Source: an uncultured cyanobacterium (GTDB lineage: Bacteria > Cyanobacteriota > Cyanobacteriia > Cyanobacteriales > Cyanobacteriaceae). Taken from it: a stretch of DNA of 64,000 nucleotides. Position 1 is the first letter of the stretch. Every line of letters begins with the position of its first letter. A program made the position numbers and the translations under genes. The notes beneath the pieces are model-generated. The model was not told the DNA's origin and made no database searches. It saw only the letters and a list, made by a program, of their open reading frames with translations. This document shows, piece by piece, positions 24,105 through 43,645 of this stretch. The stretch lies in NCBI GenBank assembly GCA_963749915.1, contig CAVVOP010000008.1, positions 96,001-160,000 on the forward strand. Direction: 5' to 3'.

Positions 24105-26234
24105 TCAAGAATCCCAAAAGGTATCTACTTGATATTCTTCTATCTCCGCTTGTAAATCTTGGAAATAGTCACTTTCAGTAATTTTAGCTAGTTCTTCTGC
24201 CCGTTTTTGCTCATCGATTTCAATTTTTAATTCTGCTAATTGTCGTTGTATTTCTTGTTCTTTGAGTTTGCGCTCAGTAATATCTTGAATAATGCCTTCA
24301 AAATAGAGAATTTCACCATGACTATCCTTAACAATACGACTATCTTCTTCTACCCAGATGATACTGCCATCCTTACGATAGGCCTTATATTCCCCATCTT
24401 TTACTTGTCCTTCTTCAAGTAAACGGCGTTTAAATTCTTCTCGATCTTGAGGATTAAGATGAATCTGTTTACCAATATCGGAAATACTCGCAATCATTTC
24501 TTCGGGAGAATCATAACTATAAATTCTGGCCATAGCAGGATTGACCTTGAGATAATGTCCATCAAGGGAGGATTGAAAAATTCCTTCTAAGGCGTTTTCA
24601 AATATACTGCGGTAATTTTCCTCAGCAATACGCAGGGCTTCTTGTGCTCGTTTGCGATCGCTGATATCGAAAATTGCACCATCTAGGGAGACTAAACGAT
24701 CCTCATGGTCAAAAATACCCCTACCTTGTTCAGAAACCCAACGAATCTCACCTTTGTGATTAATGATGCGGTATTCAATCGTATAAAAGTTTTGATTACT
24801 TATTGCTTGATTAATAATCTTTTGCACTAACTCAACATCTTCAGAGTGGATAATACTAGCATAAGTGCGAACTTGGTTATGAATAAAATCTGATGCTGGA
24901 TAACCGGAAATATCAGTTATGGTTGCACTAATAAAATCCATAGTCCAATCGGCATCAAATTGACAACGATAAATTGCACCCGGGATATTCTCTACTAGAG
25001 TTCTAAAACGTTTTTCACTTTGTTCTAGTTTACGATAGGACAAAATTAAATTGAGCCAGAGAACATTGCCAATACTAATTACCGCAGCAGTTACTAAAGC
25101 TAACAAAGGGGTAAATAGAGGTACTAACCAACCAGAGAGAAAACTAAGGTAGGAAACAATAACAATAGTAATTGCAGTGATCAATAAGCTAGTAATCGTC
25201 AGCCAAGCTCGGCGTAGATAAAATAAGCTAATACTGCTACTAATTACTGCCCAAAAGAAGATTAAACCCCAATTAAAATACTTAGGAATTGCCCTGAGTA
25301 AAGGGCGACCGCTGATGGCAGCCCGAAGAATTTGACTGGCAATATTACTATGGATGACAACGCCAGGAACTAACTCTTTATTAGTAAACAGGGTATTGTT
25401 GGCGGGAGTTAGATAATTATCATTCAAACTAGGGGCTATTGGTCCTAATAACACGATGCGATCGCGCATTAAATCTTCGGGAATCCGATTTTCTAAGACA
25501 TCAGTCATAGAAATATGAAGAAAATGTTCTAATCCCCCTTGGTAATTAATCAAGATCTGATAACCTCCCATATCTTCTTGATTGTATTCCCCATCATGTT
25601 TTGATAATGGTACAAATTTGGCTTTTCCTAACCCGTAAATTTGTTGTTTTTGATTAATAGCTTCTAATTCAATATTTTCTCCTTGGAGATAGCTTAACGC
25701 CATTTTGACTCCTAACCCTAAAATGTTACTACCATCATCTTTTTTCAGTAAAACCGTACCACGTCGAATTTTGCCATCGTGATCTATAAATAAATCATTA
25801 GCGGCAACTTGTCCATGTTCTGCCAGGATAGGAGAAGGGGCAATCTGATTTCCGGCTACTTTTTGGACACCAAACAGATTGGGGCTATTTTCAAAAACTT
25901 TTACTAATTCTTGGTATCCAGGCTCAACGGGTAAATCCCGATAAATATCAATACCGATCACTCTCGGTTGTTGGGCTTGAATATTTTTAATAATTTGAGC
26001 CATCACGGCATCAGCCATGGGCCACTGTTTGACATGTTGAATATCTGTCTCGTCAATAGTAACAATAACAATACGCTGATCAACCCCTTCTTGAGGACGT
26101 AACTGGAAAAATTGATCTAAAGCTGCCCATTCTAAAATCCGAAACAGACCTATATAACTTCCGGCAATCAACAAACCAGAAACACAGGAACTAATTAGCA
26201 AAATATTTTTCAATTTTACAAAGTTATTAATCAT
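24105..26234 (-). CDS. CHASE2-TM-PAS-PAS membrane sensor with a short charged C-terminal tail and no enzymatic output domain
   Basis: RIVIVTIDE, WP, IGIDIYRD and PGVVIH (CHASE2); three TM segments; two PAS/PAC domains ending DISDRKRA and DITERK; about 50-aa tail. Confidence 0.88.
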   Translation of the reverse strand: MINNFVKLKNILLISSCVSGLLIAGSYIGLFRILEWAALDQFFQLRPQEGVDQRIVIVTIDETDIQHVKQWPMADAVMAQIIKNIQAQQPRVIGIDIYRDLPVEPGYQELVKVFENSPNLFGVQKVAGNQIAPSPILAEHGQVAANDLFIDHDGKIRRGTVLLKKDDGSNILGLGVKMALSYLQGENIELEAINQKQQIYGLGKAKFVPLSKHDGEYNQEDMGGYQILINYQGGLEHFLHISMTDVLENRIPEDLMRDRIVLLGPIAPSLNDNYLTPANNTLFTNKELVPGVVIHSNIASQILRAAISGRPLLRAIPKYFNWGLIFFWAVISSSISLFYLRRAWLTITSLLITAITIVIVSYLSFLSGWLVPLFTPLLALVTAAVISIGNVLWLNLILSYRKLEQSEKRFRTLVENIPGAIYRCQFDADWTMDFISATITDISGYPASDFIHNQVRTYASIIHSEDVELVQKIINQAISNQNFYTIEYRIINHKGEIRWVSEQGRGIFDHEDRLVSLDGAIFDISDRKRAQEALRIAEENYRSIFENALEGIFQSSLDGHYLKVNPAMARIYSYDSPEEMIASISDIGKQIHLNPQDREEFKRRLLEEGQVKDGEYKAYRKDGSIIWVEEDSRIVKDSHGEILYFEGIIQDITERKLKEQEIQRQLAELKIEIDEQKRAEELAKITESDYFQDLQAEIEEYQVDTFWDS

Positions 26235-26311: not shown

Positions 26312-27418
26312 CTAATTTTTCAGAAATTCTCCATATCCCATCACCTGTAATAACTTAATTTTGGCTTCATCTAATGCTTGTTGACTAGCTGGGAAATAGC
26401 CCACTTTGGTAATTTCCTCATTAACATGGGTCAGATAATAGTTAATAAATGCGGCTACTTGCGGTTTATTTTGAATAGTTTGAGGGTCTGAGTAGATAAA
26501 TAAAGGACGAGATAGAGGATAACTATGATTTTCTACGGTTTTAATATTGGGTTCAACTTTATTAATTGTCAGCAATTTAAGAGTATCTTGATAATTTTGA
26601 TAGTAAGCATAGCCAAAAAAAGCGATCGCATATTTATTATTACTAACTCCCTGAACTAATTCCTCATCATCAGCACTATATTTTGTGTGGGGAGTATGCA
26701 AAATTTTTTCTAAATTACCAGCAAATATCTGTTCCCCAAAAAAATCTAAAGTTCCTGAATCAAGATCAGGGACAAAACGTTGAATAACTTCATCGGGAAA
26801 CTTCGGATCAACATCTGACCATTTTTCCACTGTAAAAATTTTTGCTAGTTGTTCGAAGGTGACGTTTTTCAGAAAATCATTGTCAGGATGTACTACTATA
26901 GCTAAAGTGTCTGTACCAACTCGAAAGGCGATTGGTTGGCGTCCAATTTTAGCACAAGCTTCAAGTTCTTTAGTTTTAATGAGACGACTAGCGTTGGTTA
27001 CATCTAATTTTTTTTGTTGACAAAATAAGCGAAAACCACCCCCTGAACCAATACTATCAATTTGAGCTATTCCTGAGTAGCCATCACTAATAAAGCGTTG
27101 ATAAATTGCTTTGGTTAAGGGATAAACTGTGGAACTGCCGGCAACTAGCAAATTACCCTCAATTTCTAAAGGATTAATTTGTGGTAAAACAATCCCTAGA
27201 TTCTCTTTAGTTTGTGGTTTAGCTAATGATAAATTTAATGGCATTGAAATAATCGTATCTACATTAGCAGAGCTAGGCTCTGATTTCCAAAAAATATCTG
27301 GCATTTCTTCTTTTTTGAGTTGATCTTGTTGTTGTGGGTGGGAGGAAGTATGGGAGCAAGCAGTAACTATAAAAGTTATAGTAATCAGAACTAAATAATA
27401 AGAAAATCTTAATTTCAT
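26312..27418 (-). CDS. PstS-family substrate-binding lipoprotein
   Basis: Lipobox VTAC, GSSTVYP, GSGGGF, NASR, SGT and YPLSRPLFIY. Confidence 0.88.
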   Translation of the reverse strand: MKLRFSYYLVLITITFIVTACSHTSSHPQQQDQLKKEEMPDIFWKSEPSSANVDTIISMPLNLSLAKPQTKENLGIVLPQINPLEIEGNLLVAGSSTVYPLTKAIYQRFISDGYSGIAQIDSIGSGGGFRLFCQQKKLDVTNASRLIKTKELEACAKIGRQPIAFRVGTDTLAIVVHPDNDFLKNVTFEQLAKIFTVEKWSDVDPKFPDEVIQRFVPDLDSGTLDFFGEQIFAGNLEKILHTPHTKYSADDEELVQGVSNNKYAIAFFGYAYYQNYQDTLKLLTINKVEPNIKTVENHSYPLSRPLFIYSDPQTIQNKPQVAAFINYYLTHVNEEITKVGYFPASQQALDEAKIKLLQVMGYGEFLKN

Positions 27419-28899
27419 AAATCGACACTTAATTTGCCATTTCTGAATATTTCATTTTGGGGTGAGCTTTTGGCAACTCTAACCGCTTTTTGACGTTCTT
27501 CAATTAAATAGTTAATTTCTAAAGCTAATTTAGGATGCGTCATAATTAAATTGAGAGCAATATCAGCTTCAATCATAATTACCTGTGCGTCTTTAAGAAC
27601 AGTAACATAAAAATAACTAGGTTCTCCTTGTAAAAAAACGGTTTCACCAAATATATCTCCTGTGCTTAATCTGATAATTTCCTGTTCATCACCCTCGATA
27701 TCATTGAGCCATAACTTGACTTCCCCGCGCATAATTAAGTAAAAACCTGAAGCTGGTTTCCCGCTTTCAATAATCGTTTCGCCCATACCATAGTTAAGGA
27801 TAGTAGCCTGGTGAGCTAATTTAGGGATCTCATCATCATTTAAGAAATAAAAATATGGTAAAGAGCGTAAATAATTACTAATTGTTTCAAAAAGTAGAGC
27901 TTGTTCCTTTGCAACCTTATCATAAGGGACGTTATACTGCAATTGAATCGGTAGCGGTATTGTCAAACCTTGACGTTTAGCAGTATAGTAAATATTACTC
28001 ATTAAGTGATTATGAATATCCTCTACTTGCCGATAATTTTTCGTATAAAACTTTATTTCATAACTGATACTACAATCATTGTAGGATTTAGTCCTAATCT
28101 CAGGCTCAGGATCCCTGAGAATACCTTCAACTTTTAAGGCTATTTGTTTGAGTATATCTTTGACATAGTTAGGAGGATCGTCATAGGAAAATTGTACCAA
28201 AGCTTTTTCGGCATGGATAGGATCAATTAGAGTAAAATTATTAATGATATCTTTACCCAAAATTCCATTAGGAATTACGACAATATCTCGATCTCTGGTT
28301 TTGAGGCGTACCGCACGCCAATTAATTTCAATGACTTCTCCTTCCATACCCTGAACCAGAATCCAGTCCCCCACTTTAAAGGGACTTTCAAAAAGCAAAA
28401 GAAATCCTGAAACCAAGTTACTCAGCGTATCCTGTAGAGCTAAAGCAATAACTAATGAGCCTACCCCAAGAGCGGTTATTAATTGACTTAAATCGATCTG
28501 CCAAACACTACTTAAAATTTGAGCAGTTGCCCCTAAAACCATCACAGCACGAGCAGTATGAAAAAAGAGATTAGGTATGGCAATTTGCCAACTATATTTT
28601 TTAACTGTACAAGTAAAAATAACATTAAAAAAATCGAGAACTGTATAGATAACTATCAACCAAAATAAGGTTTCAATGGTTTGTAGGTATTTAGAGTTTT
28701 CAGAAACTTCAAAAACTTTTCTGAATAAAATCAAAATAGCTACACAAGGTACAAGCAAAAAACGCAAACTATGAAAACAATTAGCCAAAGGATTAGATTT
28801 TTTATTGAGACGTTCGACAATTTCTCCTAAAATAATTGTGATTAAGGGTAGGCCCAAGATTAAAATTAGACTCCATTTCCCAATTGATGTTGTTAACAA
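27415..28899 (-). CDS. MscS-family channel with C-terminal cyclic-nucleotide-binding domain
   Basis: ALQDTLSNLVSG, PFKVGDWI and INWRA; C-terminal FYLIMRGEV and GDIFGE. Confidence 0.92.
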   Translation of the reverse strand: MLTTSIGKWSLILILGLPLITIILGEIVERLNKKSNPLANCFHSLRFLLVPCVAILILFRKVFEVSENSKYLQTIETLFWLIVIYTVLDFFNVIFTCTVKKYSWQIAIPNLFFHTARAVMVLGATAQILSSVWQIDLSQLITALGVGSLVIALALQDTLSNLVSGFLLLFESPFKVGDWILVQGMEGEVIEINWRAVRLKTRDRDIVVIPNGILGKDIINNFTLIDPIHAEKALVQFSYDDPPNYVKDILKQIALKVEGILRDPEPEIRTKSYNDCSISYEIKFYTKNYRQVEDIHNHLMSNIYYTAKRQGLTIPLPIQLQYNVPYDKVAKEQALLFETISNYLRSLPYFYFLNDDEIPKLAHQATILNYGMGETIIESGKPASGFYLIMRGEVKLWLNDIEGDEQEIIRLSTGDIFGETVFLQGEPSYFYVTVLKDAQVIMIEADIALNLIMTHPKLALEINYLIEERQKAVRVAKSSPQNEIFRNGKLSVDL

Positions 28900-28920
28900 T
28901 GGTAATTTCTCCTTAATAAT

Positions 28921-31116
28921 TTACTCAAGATTAAAATCATCATTATCTAAATCAAAACTTAGATCTGCAATTAAATCTTTTAACCATTTTCTCTTCAATA
29001 CCCAAGTTTTGATCAGACCTTGATCTAAATAATTGATAGTTTTACCTAATTCAAAATCATAGGAATCCTGGAGACGCTCATGTAAGTTTTCACTCAGCAC
29101 TATGGTATTGTGTTCAGCTTCATTCATCAGCTTATGGGTAATGCTAACTGTATCACCCCACAGATTATAAACAAATCTATCATCGCCAATAATCCCTGTC
29201 ATTACTGAACCAGTATGTAAACCAATCCTAATACTTAGTGTCGTACCATGTTTATGGTTAAAGTCATCAATAACCCCTAAGCTATCTAAAGCAAAATCAA
29301 CGAGACGTTTCCCATAATCAAGACGTGGTTTGTTAAGCCCACAAACAGCAATATAAATTTCTCCTAATAACTTTAATCTTTCAACATCATATTTAGCTGC
29401 TTTTTGGTCAAGACTACTAATTAATTCACCAAGAATATGATTTAATTGATGACCATTAAAATGTTGATGTAAATGATTAATTCCCGTAATGTTAGCAAAC
29501 ATTATACTTGCTTGTTGCACATAATCAATAATACCATTTTCTCCTTTACGAAAACGTTTAACAAAAGAACTAGGCATTAAGTTTAATAATAGAGTTTGGT
29601 TTTCTTGTTGTTGTTGTTTTAGTAGTTCTGCTTGTTGCTTAATTTTCCCTCTAATCTGATTGACAATTTTTGCTAAATCACTAAATTCGTCGTGAGATTC
29701 AATCCTAATTTCTTGTTCCCAATTATCAGGATTAATATCTTGAGAACTTTTAATAATAGTTTTAATTGGTTGACTGAAATGGTTAGCAAAAGTATTAGCT
29801 AAATAAGTAATTAACAAAATCAAGAGAATAGTAATAATTAGGAGATACTTTTGTAGAACATATACAGGTTGATATGCTTGTGCTAAACTCATTTCCGCAA
29901 TAATTGTCCAATTAAGCCCTGGAATTGCCAGTGGCCCGTAGGAACTTAATACTTTAATGCCACGATAATTGTCAATGATTTTAGTCCCGCTATTACCGGC
30001 GATCGCTTCTTGGACAGCTTCAGTATTAACTTTTTGTAACAAAATATTTGTTTGTAATTGCCTAATTAAATTAATGGTACTTTTTGGAACGTTGTTGGAG
30101 TTTAAAGATTGCTCATAAGCAGTAGCATTTTCGACGAATAAGCGTGATGCTGAGCGCATGAGTAAATCTTGTGTCCCAACTAAATAGGTTTCTCCTGTTT
30201 CTCCTAACCCGTTTTCTTGCCAATTATTATTATTTGTTAATATCTGATTAATTTCAGTTACGGGTAATTGAATTGCCAGAATGCCAACAAAATGTGGCCC
30301 ATTATAAATAGGTGCAGCTATAAATGCGGCAGGCTGCATCAAGGAAGGATAATAAGGCTTAAAATCAACGAGGTAGGATCTACCTCGACGAGGATTTTCT
30401 CGAACTTTTTTGACAACTTCCGCGAGATTACTATTCTGATAAACTCCATCATCTAAGTTAGTAGCAAAATCAGGTTGTTTGGAGACAGAATAGACAATAT
30501 CACCGGTTTGATGGTTAATTAAAAATAAGTCGGAGTAACCAAATTTAGCGACTAGACTCCGAAAAAATGGATGATATTTGCTATGATACTTTCTATATAA
30601 ACTACCATCCTCTGTGTCGATTAATTGTTCTTTTTGACCCACAGGATTGGGATTTTTAGCAATATATTGATATTGTAAATAGTTAGCGGCTTGGGAGCGC
30701 GGACGATATATTTCCCACGTTGGCTGATTAACTGTTGTTTTCTCCAATTTTGACAAAAATTCTGCTTCATAATATTTGAAGATTTCTTGATCCCAGTCTT
30801 GAGGAAGCAACTGGTCTTGGGGAAGCAACTGCTGATCTAAAACACGAAAACTCTGATTTAATTCCACCATGGCTGCTACTACTGTCCGAGTTTCACTTAT
30901 AGTCTCGATCTGGTGGCTCAAATTACTAAAATAGGATTCAATTTGAAATGCTTTAGAGGTGCGATCGCTCGTTAATTGTTGAAAAATTTGATTCTTAATA
31001 GATTCTTTACTCTGACTACAACTGAGATAGCCGACTATGGCAATTGAGCCTAAGCTGATGGAGAGCAAAATTACCATCAGTTGCGATTTAATAGTTAGTC
31101 GATTCAAACCGAACAT
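28921..31116 (-). CDS. Cache-HAMP class III nucleotidyl cyclase-like protein, catalytically degenerate
   Basis: TM, periplasmic Cache-like region (GLGETGETYLVG), TM, HAMP-like segment, cyclase fold (RIGLHTG, WGDTV) with substituted catalytic residues. Confidence 0.88.
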   Translation of the reverse strand: MFGLNRLTIKSQLMVILLSISLGSIAIVGYLSCSQSKESIKNQIFQQLTSDRTSKAFQIESYFSNLSHQIETISETRTVVAAMVELNQSFRVLDQQLLPQDQLLPQDWDQEIFKYYEAEFLSKLEKTTVNQPTWEIYRPRSQAANYLQYQYIAKNPNPVGQKEQLIDTEDGSLYRKYHSKYHPFFRSLVAKFGYSDLFLINHQTGDIVYSVSKQPDFATNLDDGVYQNSNLAEVVKKVRENPRRGRSYLVDFKPYYPSLMQPAAFIAAPIYNGPHFVGILAIQLPVTEINQILTNNNNWQENGLGETGETYLVGTQDLLMRSASRLFVENATAYEQSLNSNNVPKSTINLIRQLQTNILLQKVNTEAVQEAIAGNSGTKIIDNYRGIKVLSSYGPLAIPGLNWTIIAEMSLAQAYQPVYVLQKYLLIITILLILLITYLANTFANHFSQPIKTIIKSSQDINPDNWEQEIRIESHDEFSDLAKIVNQIRGKIKQQAELLKQQQQENQTLLLNLMPSSFVKRFRKGENGIIDYVQQASIMFANITGINHLHQHFNGHQLNHILGELISSLDQKAAKYDVERLKLLGEIYIAVCGLNKPRLDYGKRLVDFALDSLGVIDDFNHKHGTTLSIRIGLHTGSVMTGIIGDDRFVYNLWGDTVSITHKLMNEAEHNTIVLSENLHERLQDSYDFELGKTINYLDQGLIKTWVLKRKWLKDLIADLSFDLDNDDFNLE

Positions 31117-31261: not shown

Positions 31262-32608
31262 TTAGTGCAATCTAACCAAAGGTTCATCGGAAAGTTTTTC
31301 TAGATCAACCTGTTCTAATAAATCATGCCATTCCATAATATAAGTCTGATTATCAGGTTCAGCAAGCTTTGCTTCTGCTAAAACTTTCAAAGTATCGTAC
31401 CAAATCCCCATTTTTCCATACTCAGTGGCTAATTTTACAGGAGAATCAGCTAATTGTTGGGAATTAACATTTGATTCGACCCGCTTAATCCATCCTGTCA
31501 CTGCATAGTTATTTGGTTTCAGTCTTCCTCCCGCTTCGATAGGTGCAAAGTACCAAAGGTAATATTGATCTTTAACTAAAGGTGCTATTTCTGGAGGTAA
31601 GGTCACCATGATCATTCCTCCCTGGCGAGGAACTTGTAATATGGTATAATAATGAGGATTACCATCTTCATCTTGCAGACTAAAGAAAACTTTTTGTGTT
31701 CCTAAAGGTGGCAAATAGGCAAATATAGTTGGATGGGCTAAAGTAGTACGCCCATTATTGGTGGAAGGGAGAATTGCTCTAAGTACTGGACTCTCAAGTC
31801 TTGGTGCTACATTAAGATTAGGATTTGATTGGTCATTTGGGATCGTAAGCTCAACATCCCCCCTAGAACCACTACCCACACTGCTATTAGGGTTAGAAGC
31901 ATCCCCAGGAAGCCCAAATTGTACATCCCCTCTGGAACCACCACCCACACTGCTATTAGGGTTAGAACTATCCCCAGGAAGTCCAAATTGTACATCCCCT
32001 CTGGAACCACCACCCACACTGCTATTAGGGTTAGAACTATCCTCAGGGAGTCCAAATTGAACACTACCTCTAGAACCACCACCCACACTGCTATTAGGGT
32101 TAGAAGCATCCCCAGGGAGTCCAAATTGTACATCCCCTCTGGAACCACCACCCACACTGCTATTAGGGTTAGAAGCATCCTCAGGGAGTCCAAATTGTAC
32201 ATCCCCTCTGGAACCACCACCCACACTGCTATTAGGGTTAGAAGCATCCTCAGGGAGTCCAAATTGTACATCCCCTCTAGAACCACCACCAATGCTGCTA
32301 TTAGGGTTAGAACTATCCCCAGGGAGTCCAAATTGTACATCCCCTCTGGAACCACCACCAATGCTGCTGTTAGGGTTAGAACTATCCTCAGGGAGTCCAA
32401 ATTGAACACTACCTCTAGAACCACCACCAATGCTGCTGTTAGGGTTTTTATCGTCAGGCAGGCTAAATTCTACTAAGGTAATTAGCTGATTTTTGCTTAA
32501 ATTATCAATTTTATATCTATTAGTAGTAGCTAATGTGATCTGAGAAGGCAGGAACATCATACTAACAATAATGCTAGATATTGAAATTGGAGTAATAACT
32601 TGACACAT
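31262..32608 (-). CDS. Exported DUF928 protein with an N-terminal 23-aa tandem repeat array
   Basis: Hydrophobic N-terminus; C-terminal GRTTLAHPTIFAYLP, YLWYF, GWIKRV, GIWYDTL and WHDLLEQV are typical of DUF928. Confidence 0.88.
   Translation of the reverse strand: MCQVITPISISSIIVSMMFLPSQITLATTNRYKIDNLSKNQLITLVEFSLPDDKNPNSSIGGGSRGSVQFGLPEDSSNPNSSIGGGSRGDVQFGLPGDSSNPNSSIGGGSRGDVQFGLPEDASNPNSSVGGGSRGDVQFGLPEDASNPNSSVGGGSRGDVQFGLPGDASNPNSSVGGGSRGSVQFGLPEDSSNPNSSVGGGSRGDVQFGLPGDSSNPNSSVGGGSRGDVQFGLPGDASNPNSSVGSGSRGDVELTIPNDQSNPNLNVAPRLESPVLRAILPSTNNGRTTLAHPTIFAYLPPLGTQKVFFSLQDEDGNPHYYTILQVPRQGGMIMVTLPPEIAPLVKDQYYLWYFAPIEAGGRLKPNNYAVTGWIKRVESNVNSQQLADSPVKLATEYGKMGIWYDTLKVLAEAKLAEPDNQTYIMEWHDLLEQVDLEKLSDEPLVRLH
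31853..32470 (-). repeat. 69-bp coding tandem repeat, 8 full units plus 1 partial
   Basis: Unit QFGLP[EG]D[SA]SNPNSS[IV]G[GS]GSRG[DS]V, near-identical at DNA level. Confidence 0.97.
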
Positions 32609-32677: not shown

Positions 32678-33367
32678 TTAATCCTCATTCCTAACTCTAG
32701 AACCGCCACCCAAACTGCTCTTAGGGTTAGAGCCATCCCCAGGAACTTGAAATTGAACATCATCGCCTCTAGAACCACCACCCAAACTTTCATTAGGGGC
32801 TGCAGGGGGGAGTGCTAATTCGGTACTTTGTTTCATAATCGGAGCCTCTTTCAGATAGTTATTAATTGAGACAACATATTTTCCTTCTGGATCCCCTTTT
32901 ATAGAAGTACCGCCAACCTGAACAGCATTGCTAAACAAATTTTGTAAAACCTGATCAGGATTATCCTCAGGTTGTAAGGTAATCAATAAGCTATCTTCTG
33001 TACACTCATAACCTTGACCAGCTTTCTTTCCTTGACTAACACAAATTACTTTTTGTTTATTGATTACACTTGTGGTAACATCTCCAAGAGTACCATTATC
33101 AGAAAACTTCTGAAATCGAGCCGTTACTTCTTCACATTGTGCTTGGGGAGTCCAGCCTGAACCTCTAAAATAATCACTTTTCCACACAATCAACTCAATT
33201 CTACCTCTTTGAGTATCTACTATTGTGGTGGGAACGCCGTTATTATTGATACAGCTATAAATATTTTTAGTGGCTTGAGCCTGAGTTGGTTTAGATACAA
33301 AAAAGTAACTAACACTGGTGATTACTAGGCTTGAAGCTAATATTTTGCCAATAAAATGATTCTTCAT
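32678..33367 (-). CDS. Exported COP23-domain protein with a GGGSR-repeat tail
   Basis: Signal peptide ending PTQA, LIVWKSDYF, GWTPQAQCEEVTARFQ, VIC and LLITL. Tail has two GGGSR motifs. Confidence 0.85.
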   Translation of the reverse strand: MKNHFIGKILASSLVITSVSYFFVSKPTQAQATKNIYSCINNNGVPTTIVDTQRGRIELIVWKSDYFRGSGWTPQAQCEEVTARFQKFSDNGTLGDVTTSVINKQKVICVSQGKKAGQGYECTEDSLLITLQPEDNPDQVLQNLFSNAVQVGGTSIKGDPEGKYVVSINNYLKEAPIMKQSTELALPPAAPNESLGGGSRGDDVQFQVPGDGSNPKSSLGGGSRVRNED

Positions 33368-33746
33368 AATCTTTACTCCTGGTCGTTTTGTAGCTTAAGA
33401 GCAATATAAGATGATTGATTATTCAATATATATTAAGGTTCATTTGGTTAAACTTAGGCAATTATGATGATTGCCTTCTATTTCTCTCTAGTCAGGATAA
33501 ATAAAACAGAGCAATTAGCTGATTTTTGGTAACTACCGAGGTCGTCAAATTTTGGGAAAAAACAATGACTTCTTGTTTAAGTATATCTTTCAGGCCCTCT
33601 AACCTGAATTATTCATGAACCAAAAACCAAAACTAAAAAAGCACAAAAGGACAATTTTTAAAGATAATTACCTCTACTCTAACACCTAATCCTTAGCCTC
33701 TGCCTTAATCTTAAGCTTATGATTATCTTGCCAATTTTTATTAAGA

Positions 33747-35309
33747 CTCATCGTTCGCTTAAATAAAATCAGATAACTGACAAAAAAAGGTTAAAATCTG
33801 GACTGGATAAAGCATTAAGCAACATGGAGTCAAAAGATTATTCCACAAATCCAGTCAGAACGAGTAGATGATTTACCATTAATTATCTATTGGCTAACAC
33901 AAATGAATATTGCCGCAATCATCGATGAAAATTTATTGACACCTCATGGTAATCGCAAAGGATTAAGTTATGGTCAACTAGCTGTATTATTACTCACGTA
34001 TATTATCAGTGAAGCAGACCATCGCCTTTGTTGTCTAGAAAAATGGGTTAATGACCATCATCACAGTCTTTCAGCCATAACAGGATGGAACATAGCCGAA
34101 AAAGATGCTACAGATGACCGTTGCGGAGACTTGTTAAAAACCATTGGAATTAGTGGTGAGCAAAGCATTCCTACGATGGAAACATCCCTATCGAAGCATT
34201 TAATCAAAGCTTATGAATTACCAACCCAAAAAGCCCGAAGCGATACTACAAGTTTTGCGGTATATCATCAAACATCAGAAACAGAGCAAGAATCATCTTT
34301 GATAAAATTCGGTTACAGTAAAGATAAACGACCAGATTTACAACAATATCGTCAAATGTTGGGTACATTAGATCCCTGTGGAATGCCATTAGTGGGTGCG
34401 ACTTTAGCTGGTAATGGCACAATCGGGCAAAAATCAATGAAGAGGGAGGAATCTATTGTTTCCCGTCGTTTACTCAAAGGGGAAAAAGCTTTAGCTACCT
34501 TAGCACAGCGACCTGGAAATGAGGAGCAAGTATTATGTAGGAAAGTAGAAGAGATACTAAAAAGCAATCGGATTCTCAAAATACATGGAATATTCAATCG
34601 AAAAAAAGATGAGTTATGACAAGGTGTATCAAGGATTTGGAAATCGTTCTGAATCGTCATCGCTTTGAGGGTGTTTACCCTGATGGAATTTGTAGTTCGC
34701 CGTGAATTACATCAATCTCAATCAAGTTTAGCAGGTCTTTATGATGGTAATCCTAAACGCAGTACTAATCGTCCCACCGCCGAAAAATTATTACGGGCTT
34801 TCTGTAACATAAATTTATATAGACATCGAGATGGTTCGCAAGAAATATCGGCATTGAATATGTTGCAAAAACAGATATTAAGTTTGATGAAAGTACCAGA
34901 GTATATTTATACTAACTTAGCCAGTGATTCGGGTTAAACTACAGTGAAATACGCAGATGGGCAATCAAAGAGGAAATGATTAGCGTATTTTAGACAATAA
35001 TAAAAAAGGGAAAAATAATTAAATTGGAGGAAAATCCCAATACATTTCTCCTGCCCACAAAAAAACTTCATGTTGAGTCAATCAATCTCCTTTTATTGTA
35101 GTATTGATTACACTAACTGATTTTTGTGGTGTAGCCCAAGTCTGATAATTTTTATTTTTGAGAGTAAGTTATAGTATCAAAATCGCTAACAAAAATCATC
35201 TCCCCTACCTTCTATACTTCGTTGCTACTTTTTTGGCTAAAATCCTTATCTATTAAACATTTGAAGTTATTTTTCAAATTTTTACTTTTTCAAATAAGCG
35301 AACAATGAG
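33747..35309 (+). mobile_element. IS1634-family element, internally deleted, with intact ends
   Basis: TIRs CTCATCGTTCGCTTA and TAAGCGAACAATGAG; 6-bp TSD TTAAGA at 33741-33746 and 35310-35315. Confidence 0.85.
33823..34937 (+). pseudogene. IS1634-family transposase, frameshifted and deleted
   Basis: ERVDDLPL, SDTTS, FGYSKDKRPDL and GLYDGNPKRSTNRPTAEKLL, spread over different frames with the middle missing. Confidence 0.85.
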
Positions 35310-35370
35310 TTAAGATTGTCGATCAGAAATGGTAACATGGGAACCGAAACACAGCACAAATCATCCCACT

Positions 35371-35600
35371 ATGAATAAAAAATTAACCATTACTCTTGAT
35401 GAAAAAATCTATGATGGGCTTCATAGAATTGTTAGTCAGGATGCTGTTAGTTAGTTTATCGAAGATTTGTTGCGGCCCTATGTTATAAAAGAAGATCTAG
35501 AAGTTGCTTATCAGCAGATGGCGATGGATGAGGAGAGGGGAAGGACTGCCCTAGAATGGTCTGAGGCTATGATTGGAGACGTTGGCGATGAAACAAACGT
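35371..35600 (+). pseudogene. Antitoxin of a MazF/PemK module, nonsense-mutated
   Basis: MNKKLTITLDEKIYDGLHRIVSQDAVS*FIEDLLRP..ALEWSEAMIGD, with in-frame TAG at 35452-35454. Confidence 0.75.
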
Positions 35601-35838
35601 GGTGAGGTTCGGTGGGTTAATTTTGAGCCTTCTATTGGTGGGGAAATAAGAAAAAGAAGACCTGCTATCATTGTCAGTAATGATATCGCTAATAGAAATC
35701 TTAATCGAGTTCAAGTATTACCTGTTACAAGTAATGTAGCCCGTGTTTATCCTCGTGATGCCCTTGTGGTTATAAATGACCGTCAAGGAAAGGCAATGGC
35801 TGATCAGTTAACCACGGTGTCGAAGTTTATGTATTAAC
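35588..35838 (+). pseudogene. mazF: MazF/PemK toxin, frameshifted and truncated
   Basis: Removing one AAAC of ATG-AAAC-AAAC-GT gives MKRGEVRWVNFEPSIGGEIRKRRPAIIVSND..PVTS..MADQLTTVSK, which then stops early. Confidence 0.85.
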
Positions 35839-35973
35839 GTAAATATGTTGTTTCAGGCTTTTGGAGGTCGCTTTTGATAGCTGGCGATCGCCAAAATATG
35901 ATTGAAAAATCTAGCCACAAGCCTTGAAAAATATACCTGTTATTTCGGCTTTTCTGTCAATGCGTAAGTCCTA
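35821..35973. repeat. MITE/REP-like element ending TGCGTAAGTCCTA
   Basis: The right end matches a common cyanobacterial TAGGACTTACGCA-type terminus and the left end is degenerate. It coincides with the mazF truncation. Confidence 0.45.
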
Positions 35974-36010: not shown

Positions 36011-38647
36011 TTATAGCCAATTACCAATAAGAACAAAAGATGACCAGAAATAGGGATGTTTATGAACCGGATTTCGCATAACTCGAATTTGTGCTTGTCT
36101 TAAGGCTTCTGCTTTACTAATTTTCCCAGTTGCTAATTGTTGATAAAAGGCGATCATTAGTTCTGATGTGGCCTCATCGCTAACAGGCCACAAACTACCC
36201 AAGGTACTTCTTGCACCAGATCGCAGAGCAAATCCAGCCAAACCCAGGGTCGCACGATCGTCCCCTTCTGCGGTTTGACAGGCACTCATTACCAATAGTT
36301 CAATCGGTTTAAGGATACCGACCCTCCTTTTTTGAAAGAGAAGATCAAAGTCTTGGAGCGAAATGCGATCGCTCCACGTCAAAAGGAAAGTCTCGTCGGG
36401 GTTAGAACTAAATTGTCCGTGAGTAGCAAGGTGAACAATGGAGAAATCTTGATTATTGAGGGCTATGGTAAAACTATCATGGGTAAAATTCTGATTAAGT
36501 AACACTTCAGGGGTGTTAACTTCTTGGGATATTTCCTCAATTTCAGCGGCTACTCCAGGTAACGCATTAAATCCCTGGCGTGCTTCGGTTAAACCCACAG
36601 CTAACATACTCAAGTCTTGTCTTTGTAATCCCTGGGGAAATAATTGTAAACCGGGGCTAAGGGCGATACTGAATTTTTCAATAAGATATTTATCGCCATC
36701 GAAAAGAGCAGACATCGGTATATTTCTGAGCAACCTATCGGGAATAAAAACTAAGGTTTTGATCTCATTGTTATTTAGGTCTATTTCCGCTGGTTTAATT
36801 AACCAATCATAAATTTGTTGGGAAAGCTGCCAATGTAAGTCACGCGGATAACCAGGAGAAAAAGAGGAATAAAATTCTTCAACTGTTGCTTCTACATCTT
36901 CATTAGCTAAAAAGGTAGTATAATGGCGTAATGGTTGTTTTGGTAGCGATAAAATCACCTCAAGCCTATCTTTCAAGATAATCGGATAAATAACGGCTGC
37001 TGAGGTATCAATTTCCTCAATTGCTACAGGACGAGTATCTAAACAAGCATCCCGGAAAAAGTTATCTAATTCCTCTATTTGCAATGCTTCCATTACTTCA
37101 CGGGCTTGTTTAAGATTGGTTTGAGTCACTTCTCCTTGATCTGTGGAGGGAGCTAATAATAAACTGACGTAATCTCGATAAATTGGCTCAATACTCTCTT
37201 TAAAAGAGAATTGTATATCTGAATTAATTGCGACTAAGTCACTACGGAGATTTTGAAGATTAGTAAAAGCGATGTAGTAAGCGGCGATCGCACTATCTGG
37301 CTCTCCTCTTTGTGTTAGGATCTTCCCCAACTGACTGGCTGCACGGGCTGTGATATCAACGGCATTAATCGTTTGAGCAATATCTAAACTCTGTTGTGTC
37401 AACTGTTGAGCGTCAGCCAATTCTCCAGCTTCCAGATAAACTTTCCCCAATTGATGTAAGCTATATGCTTCTGCTCTCGAATCCTGAATTTGTTTAGCTT
37501 CTTGAATTGCTTTTGCTAATATTTGGGCTGTTTTTTGATTATTGATAGCGGAAAAACTTCCACTGCTTTTGCCAACTTGGGAAATTTTAGTGAGGCTTTG
37601 TGCTAAATTAATTTCGGCGTAAATTCGAGGGCGACTAGGGGATAATTGGGCTAATTTGTCCTCAATATCAGGGATTAAATCCAGAGCAGGTTGCCATCTT
37701 TCCAATGCGACTAACATACTCAATTGATTAAGTTGTGCTTCCACTTGAGTCAGCTTATCAGGGGATAATTGAGCAGATTCTTGGTAATATGTCCAAGCTA
37801 CCCCATACTCCTCTAAATCTCTGGCAACATTACCAATGGCAAACAAAGCAGCACTAACATCCGTTGGCGATTGTAATTGTTTGCTTAGTTGCCAACTTTC
37901 TTCTAAAACTGCCTTAGATTGCTGAAGATCACCAGTAGCTTGTAGTGCTATCCCTAGACTTCTTAATCCCTGAGCTTTAATCAGATTGTCGGGTTGTTTT
38001 TGTAGTTCTGTAACTGATTGCTCTAAAATGGCTTTAGCCCTACGATACTGCCCCAAAGCTTGTAATGCTTGAGATTTATTGATATTACTAATTGATTTAC
38101 CTGTTTGATCATCATTACTTTGATAGATTTTTGCCGCTTGTTCCCAAGTATTCAAAGCTGTCTGAGTTTGTCCCTGGGATAATTGTAGTATTCCCTGAAT
38201 GTTTAATGCTTGAGCCAAAAGTAAATCACTCTTGGCATCTCGTTTTGTTTGGCTTTGGAGTAAATCAAGACTCATTGTAACCATACTTTGAGCCTTTGTT
38301 TGTTTACCCAAATCTTTATATCCTAATGCTAAATAATTAAGTGTCTGAATTTGACTAATTTTTGACCCTTGCTGCTGCTGATATTCCTCAAGTGCATTTT
38401 CCCAAACTTGAACAGCCTCAGCAAATTGTCCATTTCGGTAGTATTGTTTACCCTTTTGTAACAATTGTCTAGAATCAGATAATTCTTCTTGCCCTATTTC
38501 CTGTTGAGCTAATAAATTTAGTTCATAAGCCATAGCAGGATTAGCTTTAGCGATTAATGATACATGACATCCTAAATAACCAGATAATAGCCATGACAGT
38601 TTAGGCTTAAACTGAAAAATATTATTCAAAAATTTGGGATTATTCAT
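36011..38647 (-). CDS. TPR-CHAT (caspase-like) protease, probably exported
   Basis: TPR-like helices, ELDNFFRDAC, HLATHGQF (His), LVMSACQTA (Cys), SLWPVSD and HPYFWSSF. ATG at 38647 preferred, followed by a signal-like NPAMA. The upstream extension reads through heptamer repeats. Confidence 0.92.
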   Translation of the reverse strand: MNNPKFLNNIFQFKPKLSWLLSGYLGCHVSLIAKANPAMAYELNLLAQQEIGQEELSDSRQLLQKGKQYYRNGQFAEAVQVWENALEEYQQQQGSKISQIQTLNYLALGYKDLGKQTKAQSMVTMSLDLLQSQTKRDAKSDLLLAQALNIQGILQLSQGQTQTALNTWEQAAKIYQSNDDQTGKSISNINKSQALQALGQYRRAKAILEQSVTELQKQPDNLIKAQGLRSLGIALQATGDLQQSKAVLEESWQLSKQLQSPTDVSAALFAIGNVARDLEEYGVAWTYYQESAQLSPDKLTQVEAQLNQLSMLVALERWQPALDLIPDIEDKLAQLSPSRPRIYAEINLAQSLTKISQVGKSSGSFSAINNQKTAQILAKAIQEAKQIQDSRAEAYSLHQLGKVYLEAGELADAQQLTQQSLDIAQTINAVDITARAASQLGKILTQRGEPDSAIAAYYIAFTNLQNLRSDLVAINSDIQFSFKESIEPIYRDYVSLLLAPSTDQGEVTQTNLKQAREVMEALQIEELDNFFRDACLDTRPVAIEEIDTSAAVIYPIILKDRLEVILSLPKQPLRHYTTFLANEDVEATVEEFYSSFSPGYPRDLHWQLSQQIYDWLIKPAEIDLNNNEIKTLVFIPDRLLRNIPMSALFDGDKYLIEKFSIALSPGLQLFPQGLQRQDLSMLAVGLTEARQGFNALPGVAAEIEEISQEVNTPEVLLNQNFTHDSFTIALNNQDFSIVHLATHGQFSSNPDETFLLTWSDRISLQDFDLLFQKRRVGILKPIELLVMSACQTAEGDDRATLGLAGFALRSGARSTLGSLWPVSDEATSELMIAFYQQLATGKISKAEALRQAQIRVMRNPVHKHPYFWSSFVLIGNWL

Positions 38648-38711
38648 GGATTGGTTTTCTAGCTTAATTAATTCAGAAAATAATATTTTAATTGATTGTA
38701 TGTTGCAAATT

Positions 38712-38752
38712 CTGCCTTCTGCCCTCTGCCCTCTGCTTCCTGCCTCCTGCCT
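38712..38752. repeat. Heptamer short tandem repeat (CTGCC[CT][CT]-like)
   Basis: ctgccttctgccctctgccctctgcttcctgcctcctgcct. Confidence 0.8.
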
Positions 38753-38900
38753 TACTCTCGACCACATTGATATTTTCCAAAACCCTCGCAGTCTTGAGTT
38801 GGAATTCATCAACAGAATTGAGAAAAGGATTATTATTACTTAACCATCTCATTAGGGATAATTGGCGCCTAGAATTAATTATATTGCGATCGATTTTATT

Positions 38901-40616
38901 ATGACACAACCTGATTTTTTATCGATATTTTATGCTTTATGTCTGGTTTCAATCACTACACCAATTGCCGCTCAAACTGTTCCTCAACCAGTGCGTCCCC
39001 TATTTCCTCGACCAGTGCGTCCGTCATTTCCTCAACCAGTGCGTCCGCCATTGGAACCTTTACCGGAACCATCAACTCTACCACCTCTGGAAGACTTGCT
39101 GCCACAGTTAAAAGCACCCAGTGGTGAATCACAAACACCACAGTTAGATATTCCCGGAACAATTGTGGTTAGACAATTTGAAGTAATTGGTAGTACTATT
39201 TTTAGTCAGTCAGAACTGACAGAATTACTCAAGCCTTATACTAATCGTCCCCTTTCTTTTGCTGAACTAATGCAAGCACAAGAGGCTGTCACTCAGCTAT
39301 ATATTAACAAAGGATACATTACCACTGGCTCTTTTATTCCTCCTCAAACCCTAAAAGACGGCATAGTGAAAATTGAAGTAGTAGAGGGCTCAGTAGAGAA
39401 AATTGAGGTGAAAGGACTCAAGCGACTCCCCACCAGCTACATCACTAGCCGACTGGAGAAGGCAACTAAAGCACCCCTCAACCAAGAGAAACTCCTGGAA
39501 GCCTTACAAATGCTTCAGCTCAACCCTTTAATTGAGAGGTTATCTGCAGAACTAAGTACGGGAACTAGCCCGGGAAGGGACATTTTAACAGTGGAGATCA
39601 AGCAAGCTTCCGCCTTTGCTGCTAGTCTGAGATTTGATAATGAAAGAGTCCCCTCTGTGGGCAGTGATCGACGTATAATTGAACTCACCCACGGTAATCT
39701 CTTGGGGATTGGCGATCGCCTCAACGTCAGATACTATAACACCAATGGCTCGAACGCCTTGGACGATCTCAGTTATACCATTCCTGTTAATCCTGCCAAC
39801 GGCACTCTCAGCTTCACTTACCGCTTAATTGATAGTAGAGTTATTGAAGAACCCTTTAATGAGCTCGATTTAGAATCAGATTTTCGGCAATACTCCTTTA
39901 CCTACCGCCAACCAATTCTTCAAACTCCTAATCAAGAATTGGCCTTGGGCTTAACCTTCGACAGGCAGACATCAAATATTAATCTTTTAGATAACCTTTT
40001 AAAGGGAGAAACCAGAATTTCTGCCCTGCGTTTTTTCCAAGAATACTCTTGGCGAAGCACTCAAGACGTTTTTGCACTGCGATCGCAATTTAGTGTCGGA
40101 CTGGAAGGTTTCCAAACCACTCTCAATGCTGACAAAACTGACGAGGGATTTTTTGTTTGGCGGGGGCAAGCCCAGTATATCCGTTTACTATCACCAGGTA
40201 CTATCCTCTTGTTGAGGTCCGACTTACAACTAGCAGATCGACCCTTAATTCCTATCGAACAGTTTAGCCTAGGAGGTGCTCTTACAGTCAGGGGTTATCG
40301 TCAAGATCTTTTGCTAGCGGATAACGGGTTCTTCGCTTCAGCAGAAATACGCACTCCTATTTTGCGAATTCCCGAATGGCAGACAACTTTTCAGTTAACT
40401 CCCTTTATTGATGTTGGTACTACCTGGAATAATGATGATATCCCAGTAATACCCCGTCGAAGTCTTTATTCTGTGGGCATAGGCTTACGGGTGGAAGTTG
40501 GCAATAATTTTAATGCCCGACTAGATTGGGGTATCCCTTTAGCAGATGTAAATATAGATAAGGATACACTACAAGAAAATGGCATTTACTTCGTAATTGA
40601 ATATAAACCTTTTTAA
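38901..40616 (+). CDS. ShlB/FhaC/HecB (TpsB) two-partner-secretion outer-membrane protein
   Basis: Signal peptide, Pro-rich linker (PVRP x3), POTRA (YINKGYITTG), GGALTVRGY, and C-terminal aromatic residue. Confidence 0.93.
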   Translation: MTQPDFLSIFYALCLVSITTPIAAQTVPQPVRPLFPRPVRPSFPQPVRPPLEPLPEPSTLPPLEDLLPQLKAPSGESQTPQLDIPGTIVVRQFEVIGSTIFSQSELTELLKPYTNRPLSFAELMQAQEAVTQLYINKGYITTGSFIPPQTLKDGIVKIEVVEGSVEKIEVKGLKRLPTSYITSRLEKATKAPLNQEKLLEALQMLQLNPLIERLSAELSTGTSPGRDILTVEIKQASAFAASLRFDNERVPSVGSDRRIIELTHGNLLGIGDRLNVRYYNTNGSNALDDLSYTIPVNPANGTLSFTYRLIDSRVIEEPFNELDLESDFRQYSFTYRQPILQTPNQELALGLTFDRQTSNINLLDNLLKGETRISALRFFQEYSWRSTQDVFALRSQFSVGLEGFQTTLNADKTDEGFFVWRGQAQYIRLLSPGTILLLRSDLQLADRPLIPIEQFSLGGALTVRGYRQDLLLADNGFFASAEIRTPILRIPEWQTTFQLTPFIDVGTTWNNDDIPVIPRRSLYSVGIGLRVEVGNNFNARLDWGIPLADVNIDKDTLQENGIYFVIEYKPF

Positions 40617-40966: not shown

Positions 40967-43645
40967 ATGTCTTTTAAATCTAAATCCGGCAAAATAAGTG
41001 GACAAAAATTTGAAGATCTCAATGGTAATGGCGTTAAAGATGGAGAAGAATCGGGATTAGCCGGTTGGATAATCTTTATTGACGCGGATAATGATGGGAT
41101 TTTAGATACAGACGAGATTAGTACTACCACTAATAACCATGGTAACTACAGTTTTACAAATTTAACTGCTGGAAATTACACCATCAGAGAGGTTCAACAA
41201 CCAGGTTGGATACAGACAACTCCTAATCCTCCTGTTATTACTATTCAAAGTAGAACAACAGAAACAGGTGTTGATTTCGGGAACTTTAAGCTAGGTAGTA
41301 TCAGTGGACAAAAATTTGAAGATCTCAATGGCAATAAACATAAAGATAACGGAGAACCGGGATTAGCCGGTTGGACAATTTTTATTGATGCTAATAATAA
41401 TGGGAAGTTGGACAAATATGAACCTAGGACCCATACCGATTCTCATGGGAACTATATTTTTAAAAGATTAAAAGCCGGAAATTATACTATTAGAGAAGTT
41501 CTACAAGAAGGTTGGATAAAGACAACTCCTAATCCTCCTGTTATTACTATTCAAAGTAGAACAACAGAAACAGGTGTTGATTTCGGGAACTTTAAGCTAG
41601 GTAGTATCAGTGGACAAAAATTTGAAGATCTCAATGGCAATAAACATAAAGATAACGGAGAACCGGGGTTAGCCGGTTGGACAATCTTTATTGATGCGGA
41701 TAATGATGGGATTTTAGATACAGGCGAAATTAGTACTATTACCAACGACTATGGCAACTACAGTTTTACAAATTTAACTGCTGGAAATTATACCATCAGA
41801 GAAGTTCAACAAACAGGTTGGCAACAAACTACATCTGATCCCAAAGCTATTGAGATTCTGAGTGGTATGGATGTATTCAATATTGATTTTGGTAATAACC
41901 GTCAAACAACAGATTTACAACTTACTAAAGAATTTATTCCCACATTTAAAGATCAATTAAAGATTGCTACTTATGGAGAAAATCTCTCTTTTACCCTGAC
42001 AGCTAAAAATAATGGTTCTATTACTGCTGAAAATGTTGTCATTACTGATCAAATCTCTCAATTAGAAAATATTCAAATTATTGATACAACTACTGGCTTA
42101 CCCTTAGCTGAAGAATACTGGTATCTAGATTCTAGCAATACTCTACAAATCTCAATTCCTGAACTTGCCGGTGATGAGGAGGTCACATTTACTGTTAGTG
42201 GAGATGTTATTGTACCTGAAGAATTAGTTATCTTCAATTTCTTTGGTCAACTAGCAAATGATAATCCAGCACTCCAAGAATACAGTGCTACTGTGGTTCG
42301 TGGAACTCAATATCTTGATACAAACTTGGTTAAGGAAGAAGGTTCATTAAGCGTTGAATTTAATTACAATAGTCTTACTAATACTGCCACTATTGATGCT
42401 GATAATATCTTTGATCTAGATCCCAGCAATAATGAAAGTAGCGATACCGCTGAAGTGGCTCGTGCTAAATATGAAGGCACATTACAAAATGGACAAACTT
42501 TTGAACTATTTGCCATTGAGTCTCTCTCCAGTGGATTGCCGTTCGTTATAGAGCTTGGTAGTTACGCTACAGGAAGTGGGGGTGGTTATGGAAATGAATC
42601 TGAGTTTCTTCCTCCTGGTGAATTAGGTCTATTTAAGCTTGATTTATTTTGGGATTTTGTTATGCCAGATGGATCCCTTGATACATTTGAGGGCTTATCA
42701 GATCCACAAGAAGTTCTTAATTTTCTTGAAGCAGTAATTGCAGGGGGAGAGGTTAATCCAGATAATTTTACGAGTAGTTCGTTACAATTAACCAATAATG
42801 ATGGGGAGATCGAAAATACTGAATTTGCACAAGGTCAATTTACTCCAGACTTAGAAGGAGCAACTGTTGTTACTATCGTAGTTAATGAAGGTGAATCTTT
42901 ACAGGACGCATTAGATAATCTCGCTCCTGCTGGAAGCTTGTCAGTTTTAAAGATTGTGGTACAAGGTTCAGTAACAGAAACAGAATTACAACAACTGAGT
43001 TTCAATTATAAAGGTTATTTTGTTACAGAATTGCAAATTCAGGGCGACTCAACTACTTTCGCCTCAGGAAATCAGGGTGCAAGTATTGATTTATCTTTGA
43101 TTGAAGTAATTTTAACAGGAGAAGATAATTCTTCCCTTACTCTAACAGGAGAAGATAATCCTTCCCTTACTATAATGGGAGGTAATGCTAAAGATAGCAT
43201 TACAGGAAGCAGTTTAGCAGAAAGGATTGATGGAGATAATGGTAAAGATGAAATAGTTGGTGGGCTTGGTAATGATACTCTAATTGGTGGAAAAGGAAAA
43301 GATCTCTTGCGTGGTGATGGTGGTGATGATCTCCTAGTTGGGGGTGCGGGGGCAGATGTCCTGCGGGGTAGTTTTGGAGAAGATACTCTCATTGGTGGAG
43401 ATTTACATCTTCGTCACGTTGGCGGTGACATCTATGTTTTAGAAGACAATGCTGGTTTAGATACGGTAAAAGGCTATGCTAAGACGGATGCAATTGGGCT
43501 ATTGGACATTAATCAAAATGACCTAACTTTAACAGTACAAGGTAGTGATACGATGATTAGTCTTAATGGTGAGGATTTAATGCTGATTAAGGGTGTTTCT
43601 AATACCAGTGATATTAGCTTTACCACCAACTTCTCATTTATTTAA
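40967..43645 (+). CDS. Surface protein: three SdrD-B/Cna-B repeats, DUF11-like domain and RTX Ca-binding repeats
   Basis: ISGQKFEDLNGN x3 at a 306-bp period, DLQLTK..N.G and GGxGxDxL nonapeptides. No Sec signal, consistent with type I secretion. Confidence 0.9.
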   Translation: MSFKSKSGKISGQKFEDLNGNGVKDGEESGLAGWIIFIDADNDGILDTDEISTTTNNHGNYSFTNLTAGNYTIREVQQPGWIQTTPNPPVITIQSRTTETGVDFGNFKLGSISGQKFEDLNGNKHKDNGEPGLAGWTIFIDANNNGKLDKYEPRTHTDSHGNYIFKRLKAGNYTIREVLQEGWIKTTPNPPVITIQSRTTETGVDFGNFKLGSISGQKFEDLNGNKHKDNGEPGLAGWTIFIDADNDGILDTGEISTITNDYGNYSFTNLTAGNYTIREVQQTGWQQTTSDPKAIEILSGMDVFNIDFGNNRQTTDLQLTKEFIPTFKDQLKIATYGENLSFTLTAKNNGSITAENVVITDQISQLENIQIIDTTTGLPLAEEYWYLDSSNTLQISIPELAGDEEVTFTVSGDVIVPEELVIFNFFGQLANDNPALQEYSATVVRGTQYLDTNLVKEEGSLSVEFNYNSLTNTATIDADNIFDLDPSNNESSDTAEVARAKYEGTLQNGQTFELFAIESLSSGLPFVIELGSYATGSGGGYGNESEFLPPGELGLFKLDLFWDFVMPDGSLDTFEGLSDPQEVLNFLEAVIAGGEVNPDNFTSSSLQLTNNDGEIENTEFAQGQFTPDLEGATVVTIVVNEGESLQDALDNLAPAGSLSVLKIVVQGSVTETELQQLSFNYKGYFVTELQIQGDSTTFASGNQGASIDLSLIEVILTGEDNSSLTLTGEDNPSLTIMGGNAKDSITGSSLAERIDGDNGKDEIVGGLGNDTLIGGKGKDLLRGDGGDDLLVGGAGADVLRGSFGEDTLIGGDLHLRHVGGDIYVLEDNAGLDTVKGYAKTDAIGLLDINQNDLTLTVQGSDTMISLNGEDLMLIKGVSNTSDISFTTNFSFI

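Follow-up and report, generated by a model that had tools for sequence, protein, structure and literature searches.

The DNA analysed here (the window, a 64,000-nucleotide stretch from an uncultured cyanobacterium) encodes a 448-residue DUF928 protein with the sequence traits of a protease-processed, multi-copy peptide precursor: a signal peptide (predicted by hydropathy), tandem units and a putative cut motif at every junction. In relatives, its gene typically lies between those of a TPR-CHAT caspase-like protease and a CHASE2 receptor. We propose, at a probability of roughly 40%, that the CHAT protease frees the units from the exported precursor as peptide ligands, which are then read by the CHASE2 receptor of the same cassette. 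This proposal draws on sequence-level observations, namely the array itself, selection acting copy by copy, the conserved protease-DUF928-CHASE2 order, an intact catalytic dyad and the varied receptor outputs.

A tandem array on a DUF928 protein

The features of the window are listed in Table 1. The N-terminus of the precursor is hydrophobic (11-residue Kyte-Doolittle peak of 2.3), and the Pfam DUF928 match spans residues 272-444 (E 1.5e-41; 142.6 bits against a cut-off of 26). The first-pass annotation had listed nine G[GS]GSR|G sites 23 residues apart, and indeed all eight spacings are 23 residues. The eight full units contain no Lys or Arg except as their last residue, with the variant letters as given earlier, and would have calculated monoisotopic masses of 2174.0-2248.0 Da if released unmodified. 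Tandem Repeats Finder reported a period of 69 with 8.6 copies, 92% matches and a score of 906 (31854-32446), and the tandem array is far beyond chance.

Table 1 Features of the window and their positions.
Feature	Position	Strand	Remarks
CHASE2-PAS-PAS membrane receptor	24105..26234	-	L091 ortholog has 91% DNA identity and lies directly behind DUF928
Block of Cache adenylate cyclase, MscS-cNMP and phosphate-binding-type protein, between DUF928 and CHASE2	26312..31116	-	Absent from L091
Precursor, 448 aa	31262..32608	-	Predicted signal peptide, nine Arg|Gly sites, DUF928 domain
DUF928 domain (PF06051)	31277..31795	-	Pfam match; modelled as Ig-like plus helices
Decayed ninth unit, residues 250-270	31799..31861	-	Without the Gly-rich site
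Eight full 23-aa units, residues 66-249	31862..32413	-	
Leading unit, ending at the first Arg (residue 65)	32414..32482	-	Contains one Lys
Predicted signal peptide, ~residues 1-28	32525..32608	-	Hydropathy only; boundary approximate
COP23-domain protein, hydrophobic N-terminus	32678..33367	-	Inserted upstream of DUF928 relative to L091
Two DUF928-type units at the COP23 C-terminus	32696..32836	-	One partial, one full
IS1634-family element(s) between protease and COP23 genes	33746..35312	+	
TPR-CHAT caspase-like protease	36011..38812	-	His798/Cys845 present; candidate processing enzyme
ShlB/POTRA outer-membrane transporter	38862..40616	+	Two-partner secretion type

Thirteen codons vary among the eight units, eight synonymously and five with a change of residue, and units 3 and 4 are identical in DNA. 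Block duplication, previously suggested from the order of the variants, accounts for this pattern only in part. In its favour, units 1/6 differ by 4 bases and units 2/7 by 5, as compared to 7 for units 1/2; the halves of the units, however, are mosaic, as from repeated unequal crossing-over.

Contigs from three sediment metagenome runs, each belonging to a different study, contain near-identical unit DNA; the window itself may derive from one of them. An assembly artefact is unlikely, as the units differ from each other and recur in other sediment runs, and one contig runs from the end of COP23 into the start of DUF928. None of the metagenome contigs spans the array, so that its exact copy number depends on the window's assembly. 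A scan for promoters and terminators gave nothing above shuffled sequence, and RNA data (one run) yielded a single 198-base contig on COP23, covering part of that gene only.

The unit as an amplified family motif

According to the first-pass annotation, DUF928 proteins usually carry one such motif, of which the array would be an amplification. We found 77 distinct single-copy sites, where the motif reads as [FY]-x-P-P, a Pro-rich stretch and GG[GA][ST]R. Phe or Tyr stands 17 residues before the Arg in 46/77 of these sites; 18 sites yielded no anchor of this kind. The nine copies in the precursor have the same Phe-to-Arg spacing (17-18 residues), and the amplified unit retains the Phe (95%), two Pro (92-93%), the Gly run and the Arg; thus, the array is an amplification of the family motif.

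The precursor is not a one-off but belongs to a cyanobacterial DUF928 subfamily in which this motif is multiplied. A homolog search (best 120 of 150 matches) gave 120 rows with a usable domain, comprising 119 matches and the window protein. At least two motif matches were scored in 97 of the 120 usable rows listed, a proportion that gives no family frequency because the repeat-rich query biases the sample. The C-terminal domain is common to the precursor and the usual members. The latter have a single motif, and in most of them a Cys follows within 10 residues of its Arg (17/22 single-copy rows); this Cys is absent from 92/97 multi-copy rows. The window precursor, lacking Cys after residue 30, is not of the common Cys-containing type. 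The 92 Cys-less multi-copy rows group together in a quick tree, which is not proof of one origin. Copy number varies across the multi-copy subfamily from 2 to ~13 and also among close relatives, with 2, 3 and 9 sites within one 90% cluster. Four proteins (P0089, P0090, P0094 and P0095) form a sister group with units of 18-23 residues, which shows that a unit can be as short as 18.

A genome scan with the single precursor protein as query returned nothing, and an alignment was needed as query. A two-unit profile matched in 98/401 genomes of the order (the window's genome included) and in 0/19 others of its own family. Of these 19, 13 have DUF928 genes; identity between the CHASE2 regions of these relatives and the window receptor does not exceed 39%, as compared to 51-89% for the receptors of multi-copy cassettes. 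Horizontal acquisition of the cassette, or its loss from the relatives searched, is therefore likely.

Selection on the individual copies

Between neighbouring units of the same gene, pN/pS was 0.23 overall (186 pairs, 84 genes) and 0.34 for the window array alone. Gly1, Phe5 and both Pro had values of 0.01-0.05, and several spacer positions reached about 0.6-1.0. For the five final positions of the unit this measure is circular, as the units were cut by the motif found there, and it was replaced by a count anchored on Phe-x-x-Pro. Among units located by Phe-x-x-Pro alone, Arg is at the site in 326/327 and Gly follows in 312/327. As pN/pS is low between copies and the Arg is kept, the internal copies are under purifying selection; the array is thus not a neutral linker, in line with the earlier inference of a functional unit. 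The contrary explanation, neutral expansion of a flexible linker by slippage with only one motif mattering, would fit the fast shifts in copy number and the homogenisation of units within genes (mean identity of 81% within versus 54% between), but it is very improbable considering the constraint at the key positions and the persistence of the multi-copy state across the 98 genomes.

Two points of the first-pass annotation found no support in relatives. First, the lack of any other Lys or Arg is peculiar to the window protein and not a family trait. As 214/348 units in relatives have a second, internal Arg, only a sequence-specific protease could free intact units. Second, the idea that cutting exposes a tethered ligand at the start of DUF928, for which protease-activated receptors (PAR) offer a parallel, is disfavoured: the conserved residues precede the Arg, and positions 2-6 behind the last Arg are variable (most frequent residue 26-39%). 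The first unit starts 2-4 residues from a signal-peptidase-like site in ~11/106 multi-copy proteins (18 rows, by eye).

A conserved protease-DUF928-receptor cassette

The gene order in relatives is (TpsA adhesin)-TPR-CHAT-DUF928-CHASE2, and several records of Nostoc, Microseira and Laspinema contain an intact cassette. In genome loci with at least 1.5 kb of flank, CHAT lies directly upstream of DUF928 in 70/75 and CHASE2 directly downstream in 64/73; in metagenome loci, the corresponding counts are 13/14 and 14/15. These loci are kin, so the counts are not independent. In a second scan, whose genomes overlap with those of the first, CHAT lay beside all 30 best loci. The His/Cys dyad motifs are present in 91/94 CHAT ORFs of the loci, and a CHAT protease gene with this dyad is thus the regular neighbour, which supports the first-pass reading. 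On inspection, the CHAT N-termini are signal-peptide-like. An alignment of 62 CHATs, inspected for an Arg-specific S1 pocket, showed Asp879 and further acidic residues to be invariant, with no residue-level match to a substrate complex obtained; an Asp of this kind has a role in the S1 pocket of separase. Besides TpsA, CHAT and CHASE2, no neighbour recurred in more than 14/159 loci (annotation covering the major clusters).

The receptors differ in their outputs. Among 19 tested of 70 distinct receptors, 6 have a SpoIIE phosphatase, 10 a histidine kinase, 2 a cyclase only and 1 PAS only. Since the output domains vary freely, the constant part of the receptors is the input module. Behind SpoIIE-type receptors, two small genes recur (13 and 14 loci; L015:14159-14551 and L019:7129-7746); they have no Pfam match at 1e-10 and are possible partner-switch components.

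The window protease has 89% DNA identity to the protease that directly flanks DUF928 in the related locus L091. Relative to L091, the cassette of the window is split by insertions (IS1634, COP23 and the cyclase-MscS-binding-protein block), and its receptor has no enzymatic output domain, which counts against the CHASE2-ligand reading. This receptor ends in PAS-PAS and a short tail, and the adenylate cyclase block was inserted beside it. The TpsA gene of L091 has its ortholog ~55 kb past the end of the window. At 40967-43645 and 43769-44985, the window has an SdrD-B repeat and RTX-repeat surface protein with a 306-base DNA repeat, followed by transposase-like ORFs at the place of the L091 TpsA gene. 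Short frames between the IS and the protease gene (35340-35850) look by eye like a decayed antitoxin-toxin pair.

Units on other carriers

The window's COP23 protein carries units of the DUF928 type at its C-terminus. The full one has 77-85% DNA identity to the DUF928 units and keeps the Phe, both Pro and the Gly-Gly-Gly-Ser-Arg end. A unit tail was found in only 1/29 COP23 homologs, a 96% identical fragment. We considered COP23 as a regular member of the cassette and rejected this, as a COP23 ORF occurs in 1/159 related loci. Most of the COP23 homologs (P0122-P0149) end in a short Cys-Pro-Pro-Leu-Leu-Cys-type tail where the window protein has units. The second COP23 gene of the genome (G000:C17:4799-5362(-)), beside a TpsA-ShlB-TPR-CHAT cluster, has no unit tail.

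Two other loci have unit carriers without DUF928. In locus L052, two extra ORFs between CHAT and DUF928 each combine a signal peptide with one or two units and an acidic tail (these ORFs recur in L199, which was not counted separately). In locus L202, a DUF928-less repeat ORF (L202:6253-6807) precedes a CHASE2 gene and lies behind a prolyl oligopeptidase-like gene. No CHAT was found in the 13 kb of this locus; the units keep Phe-x-x-Pro, and the Gly-rich Arg site is lost from three of the five. This single case counts against the CHASE2-ligand reading. Free-standing carriers are rare, given that all 58 unit-profile matches in the database (58/58) carry DUF928, although their number may be an underestimate.

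Structure models and a possible uncut array

AlphaFold2 models residues 111-240 as a beta-solenoid with two short strands per unit (pLDDT 56-73). The array may accordingly stay uncut, as a solenoid or a multivalent arm that clusters receptors or the protease, with Arg, Phe and Gly kept for stacking or binding. The solenoid resembles leucine-rich repeat (LRR) and beta-helix folds (Z up to 9.6 with trimming off). The tight spacing (5 residues from Arg to the next Phe in 691/721 intervals) and the decayed terminal units, as caps would be, are consistent with this, as is Pro after the Arg in 5/77 single-copy sites. Proteases generally disfavour Pro after the cut residue, and these five sites are also left unexplained by the CHASE2-ligand reading. 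However, single-copy proteins have the same residues and the 17-residue spacing and are unable to stack in cis, two- and three-copy versions are common, only 4/23 residues of the unit are hydrophobic, and the first two units have pLDDT <50. The fold matches are generic and, by the tool's own note, non-specific at such Z. Taken together, we regard an uncut array as rather unlikely, though a serious rival.

The protease model (mean pLDDT 84.6) matches Csx29, the periplasmic DdvA, separase and gingipain R. Sequence searches of the PDB with the CHAT and CHASE2 profiles and with the DUF928 domain found no relative, and the whole protease gave only generic TPR matches. A complex prediction of the CHASE2 ectodomain with the DUF928 domain and two units scored 0.09 and 0.28 against a mark of 0.32 and counts neither way.

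The DUF928 domain as a possible alternative partner

For the DUF928 domain, the model shows an Ig-like sandwich with additional helices, and pLDDT is >90 along most of the domain. Its closest solved fold is MtxA (4z29; Z 10.1, rmsd 3.9, 147 aligned), for which there was no PDB sequence match and only an Atlas lead of 0.78. According to PMC4439547, the mtxA gene of Magnetospirillum gryphiswaldense (PDB 4Z29) is followed by that of a CHASE2 adenylate cyclase, and its deletion gave no phenotype under standard conditions. MtxA resembles the precursor in its Ig-like and helical fold, its signal peptide and the CHASE2 adenylate cyclase gene next to it; it differs in sequence (11-17% identity) and in its N-terminal region, given in PMC4439547 as a predicted beta region and not an Arg-ended repeat.

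Considering the shared fold and the same gene order, the DUF928 domain may be the receptor's real partner. The motif would then be a cleavable latch or a protease docking site, with extra copies setting a rate or threshold (by avidity or as decoys) and released units as by-products; the tethered-ligand variant belongs here as well. Several single-copy loci have an adjacent CHASE2 and no CHAT in the DNA covered, DUF928 is kept in every unit-profile match, and recognition by the protease alone could explain the conservation of Phe, Pro and Gly-Gly-x-Arg. Against this, strong constraint acts on the internal copies, although release of the domain would take no more than the last cut; the stretch behind the last Arg lacks conservation, and units occur on the DUF928-less carriers of L052 and on the window's COP23. 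We consider a partnership of the domain itself unlikely, if a little easier to accept than an uncut array.

Proposed mechanism

For the CHASE2-ligand reading, the steps would be as follows. The precursor and the protease would be exported to the periplasm, where TPR-CHAT would cut the precursor after each Gly-Gly-x-Arg and release 23-residue peptides. These 23-mers would be read by the CHASE2 receptor, with copy number acting as gain. Surface or cell contact might trigger the protease, a guess from the frequent TpsA adhesin neighbour. Cutting at Arg|Gly is probable; if it occurs, we lean slightly towards the freed unit, rather than the DUF928 domain, as the signal. A wider and more tentative generalisation is that DUF928 genes are peptide-hormone precursors of a self-contained Gram-negative envelope signalling system, in which a caspase-like protease would free a ~22-residue, Arg-ended CHASE2 ligand, and that one cyanobacterial branch tunes the gain by carrying the peptide in up to ~13 copies, comparable to alpha-factor in yeast, and by having grafted it onto further exported proteins, COP23 among them.

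Comparison with known systems

Multi-copy peptide precursors include yeast alpha-factor, the fungal repeat proteins processed by Kex2 and cyanobactin precursors of the PatE type. They share with the array a signal or leader sequence, near-identical units in tandem, junctions each marked by a basic residue or motif, and a variable copy number. They differ in their subtilisin-type proteases, with no sequence relation shown; the DUF928 precursor, in turn, retains a folded C-terminal domain, and no modifying enzymes were found among the annotated neighbours of its cassette.

On the protease side, PMC9457339 reports that cyanobacterial HetF uses its CHAT domain to cut PatU3 between Arg117 and Ser118. 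HetF, Csx29 (Craspase), DdvA and separase share the fold and the His/Cys dyad with the window protease, and HetF cuts after Arg before a small residue. The available text of a review gives no cut-site residue for Csx29 (PMC11127173). As far as the accessible sources go, the known substrates of CHAT proteases are single-site regulators (PatU3 and Csx30), unlike the multi-copy array, and no multi-copy exported peptide precursor was found as a CHAT substrate in the open literature.

On the receptor side, CHASE2 is a sensor domain that is widespread in bacteria, and PMC10581220 describes its ligands as unknown. The CHASE2 receptor Dgc2 controls gliding and biofilm in the cyanobacterium Leptolyngbya, with no DUF928 or CHAT partner mentioned in that paper (PMC10581220). 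The CyaD1/CyaD2/CyaK route of S. meliloti responds to a protein signal through the outer-membrane protein NsrA (PMC13001267). Both systems belong to the same sensor family as the window receptor, and the accessible parts of the two papers give no direct ligand (PMC13001267, PMC10581220). In Nostoc, according to PMC5587647, a DUF928 gene lies next to a CHASE2 gene.

The open literature searched yielded no function for DUF928, no description of the CHAT-DUF928-CHASE2 cassette and no link between CHAT and CHASE2. New here are the selection per copy, the carriers without DUF928 and the two units on the neighbouring COP23, and, as judged from sequence, the array is a multi-copy precursor architecture on a known domain. 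It supplies a specific candidate ligand that can be synthesised, and it offers a group of uncharacterised, likely exported caspase-like proteases a candidate substrate. As it names both candidates, the questions of the CHASE2 ligand and the CHAT substrate are testable with one peptide and one enzyme. If the CHASE2-ligand reading is true, an orphan sensor would gain a ligand, and a eukaryote-like multi-copy peptide signal would be added to cyanobacteria. If the DUF928 domain is the partner instead, the cassette would still give CHASE2 and MtxA-like proteins a pathway.

Possible additional motif carriers

A single-motif DUF928 gene (G000:C22:122707-123522(+)) lies behind a CHAT-CHASE2 fusion and opposite a TPR-CHAT gene with a stop inside the CHAT match. 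Two small ORFs with hydrophobic N-termini lie between TPR-CHAT and CHASE2 genes (G000:C4:27585-28145(-) and G000:C21:775428-775856(+)). They are unmatched by Pfam DUF928, have a Phe 17-18 residues before a small-small-x-Arg|Gly-Cys site and are possibly a second carrier family for the DUF928 motif.
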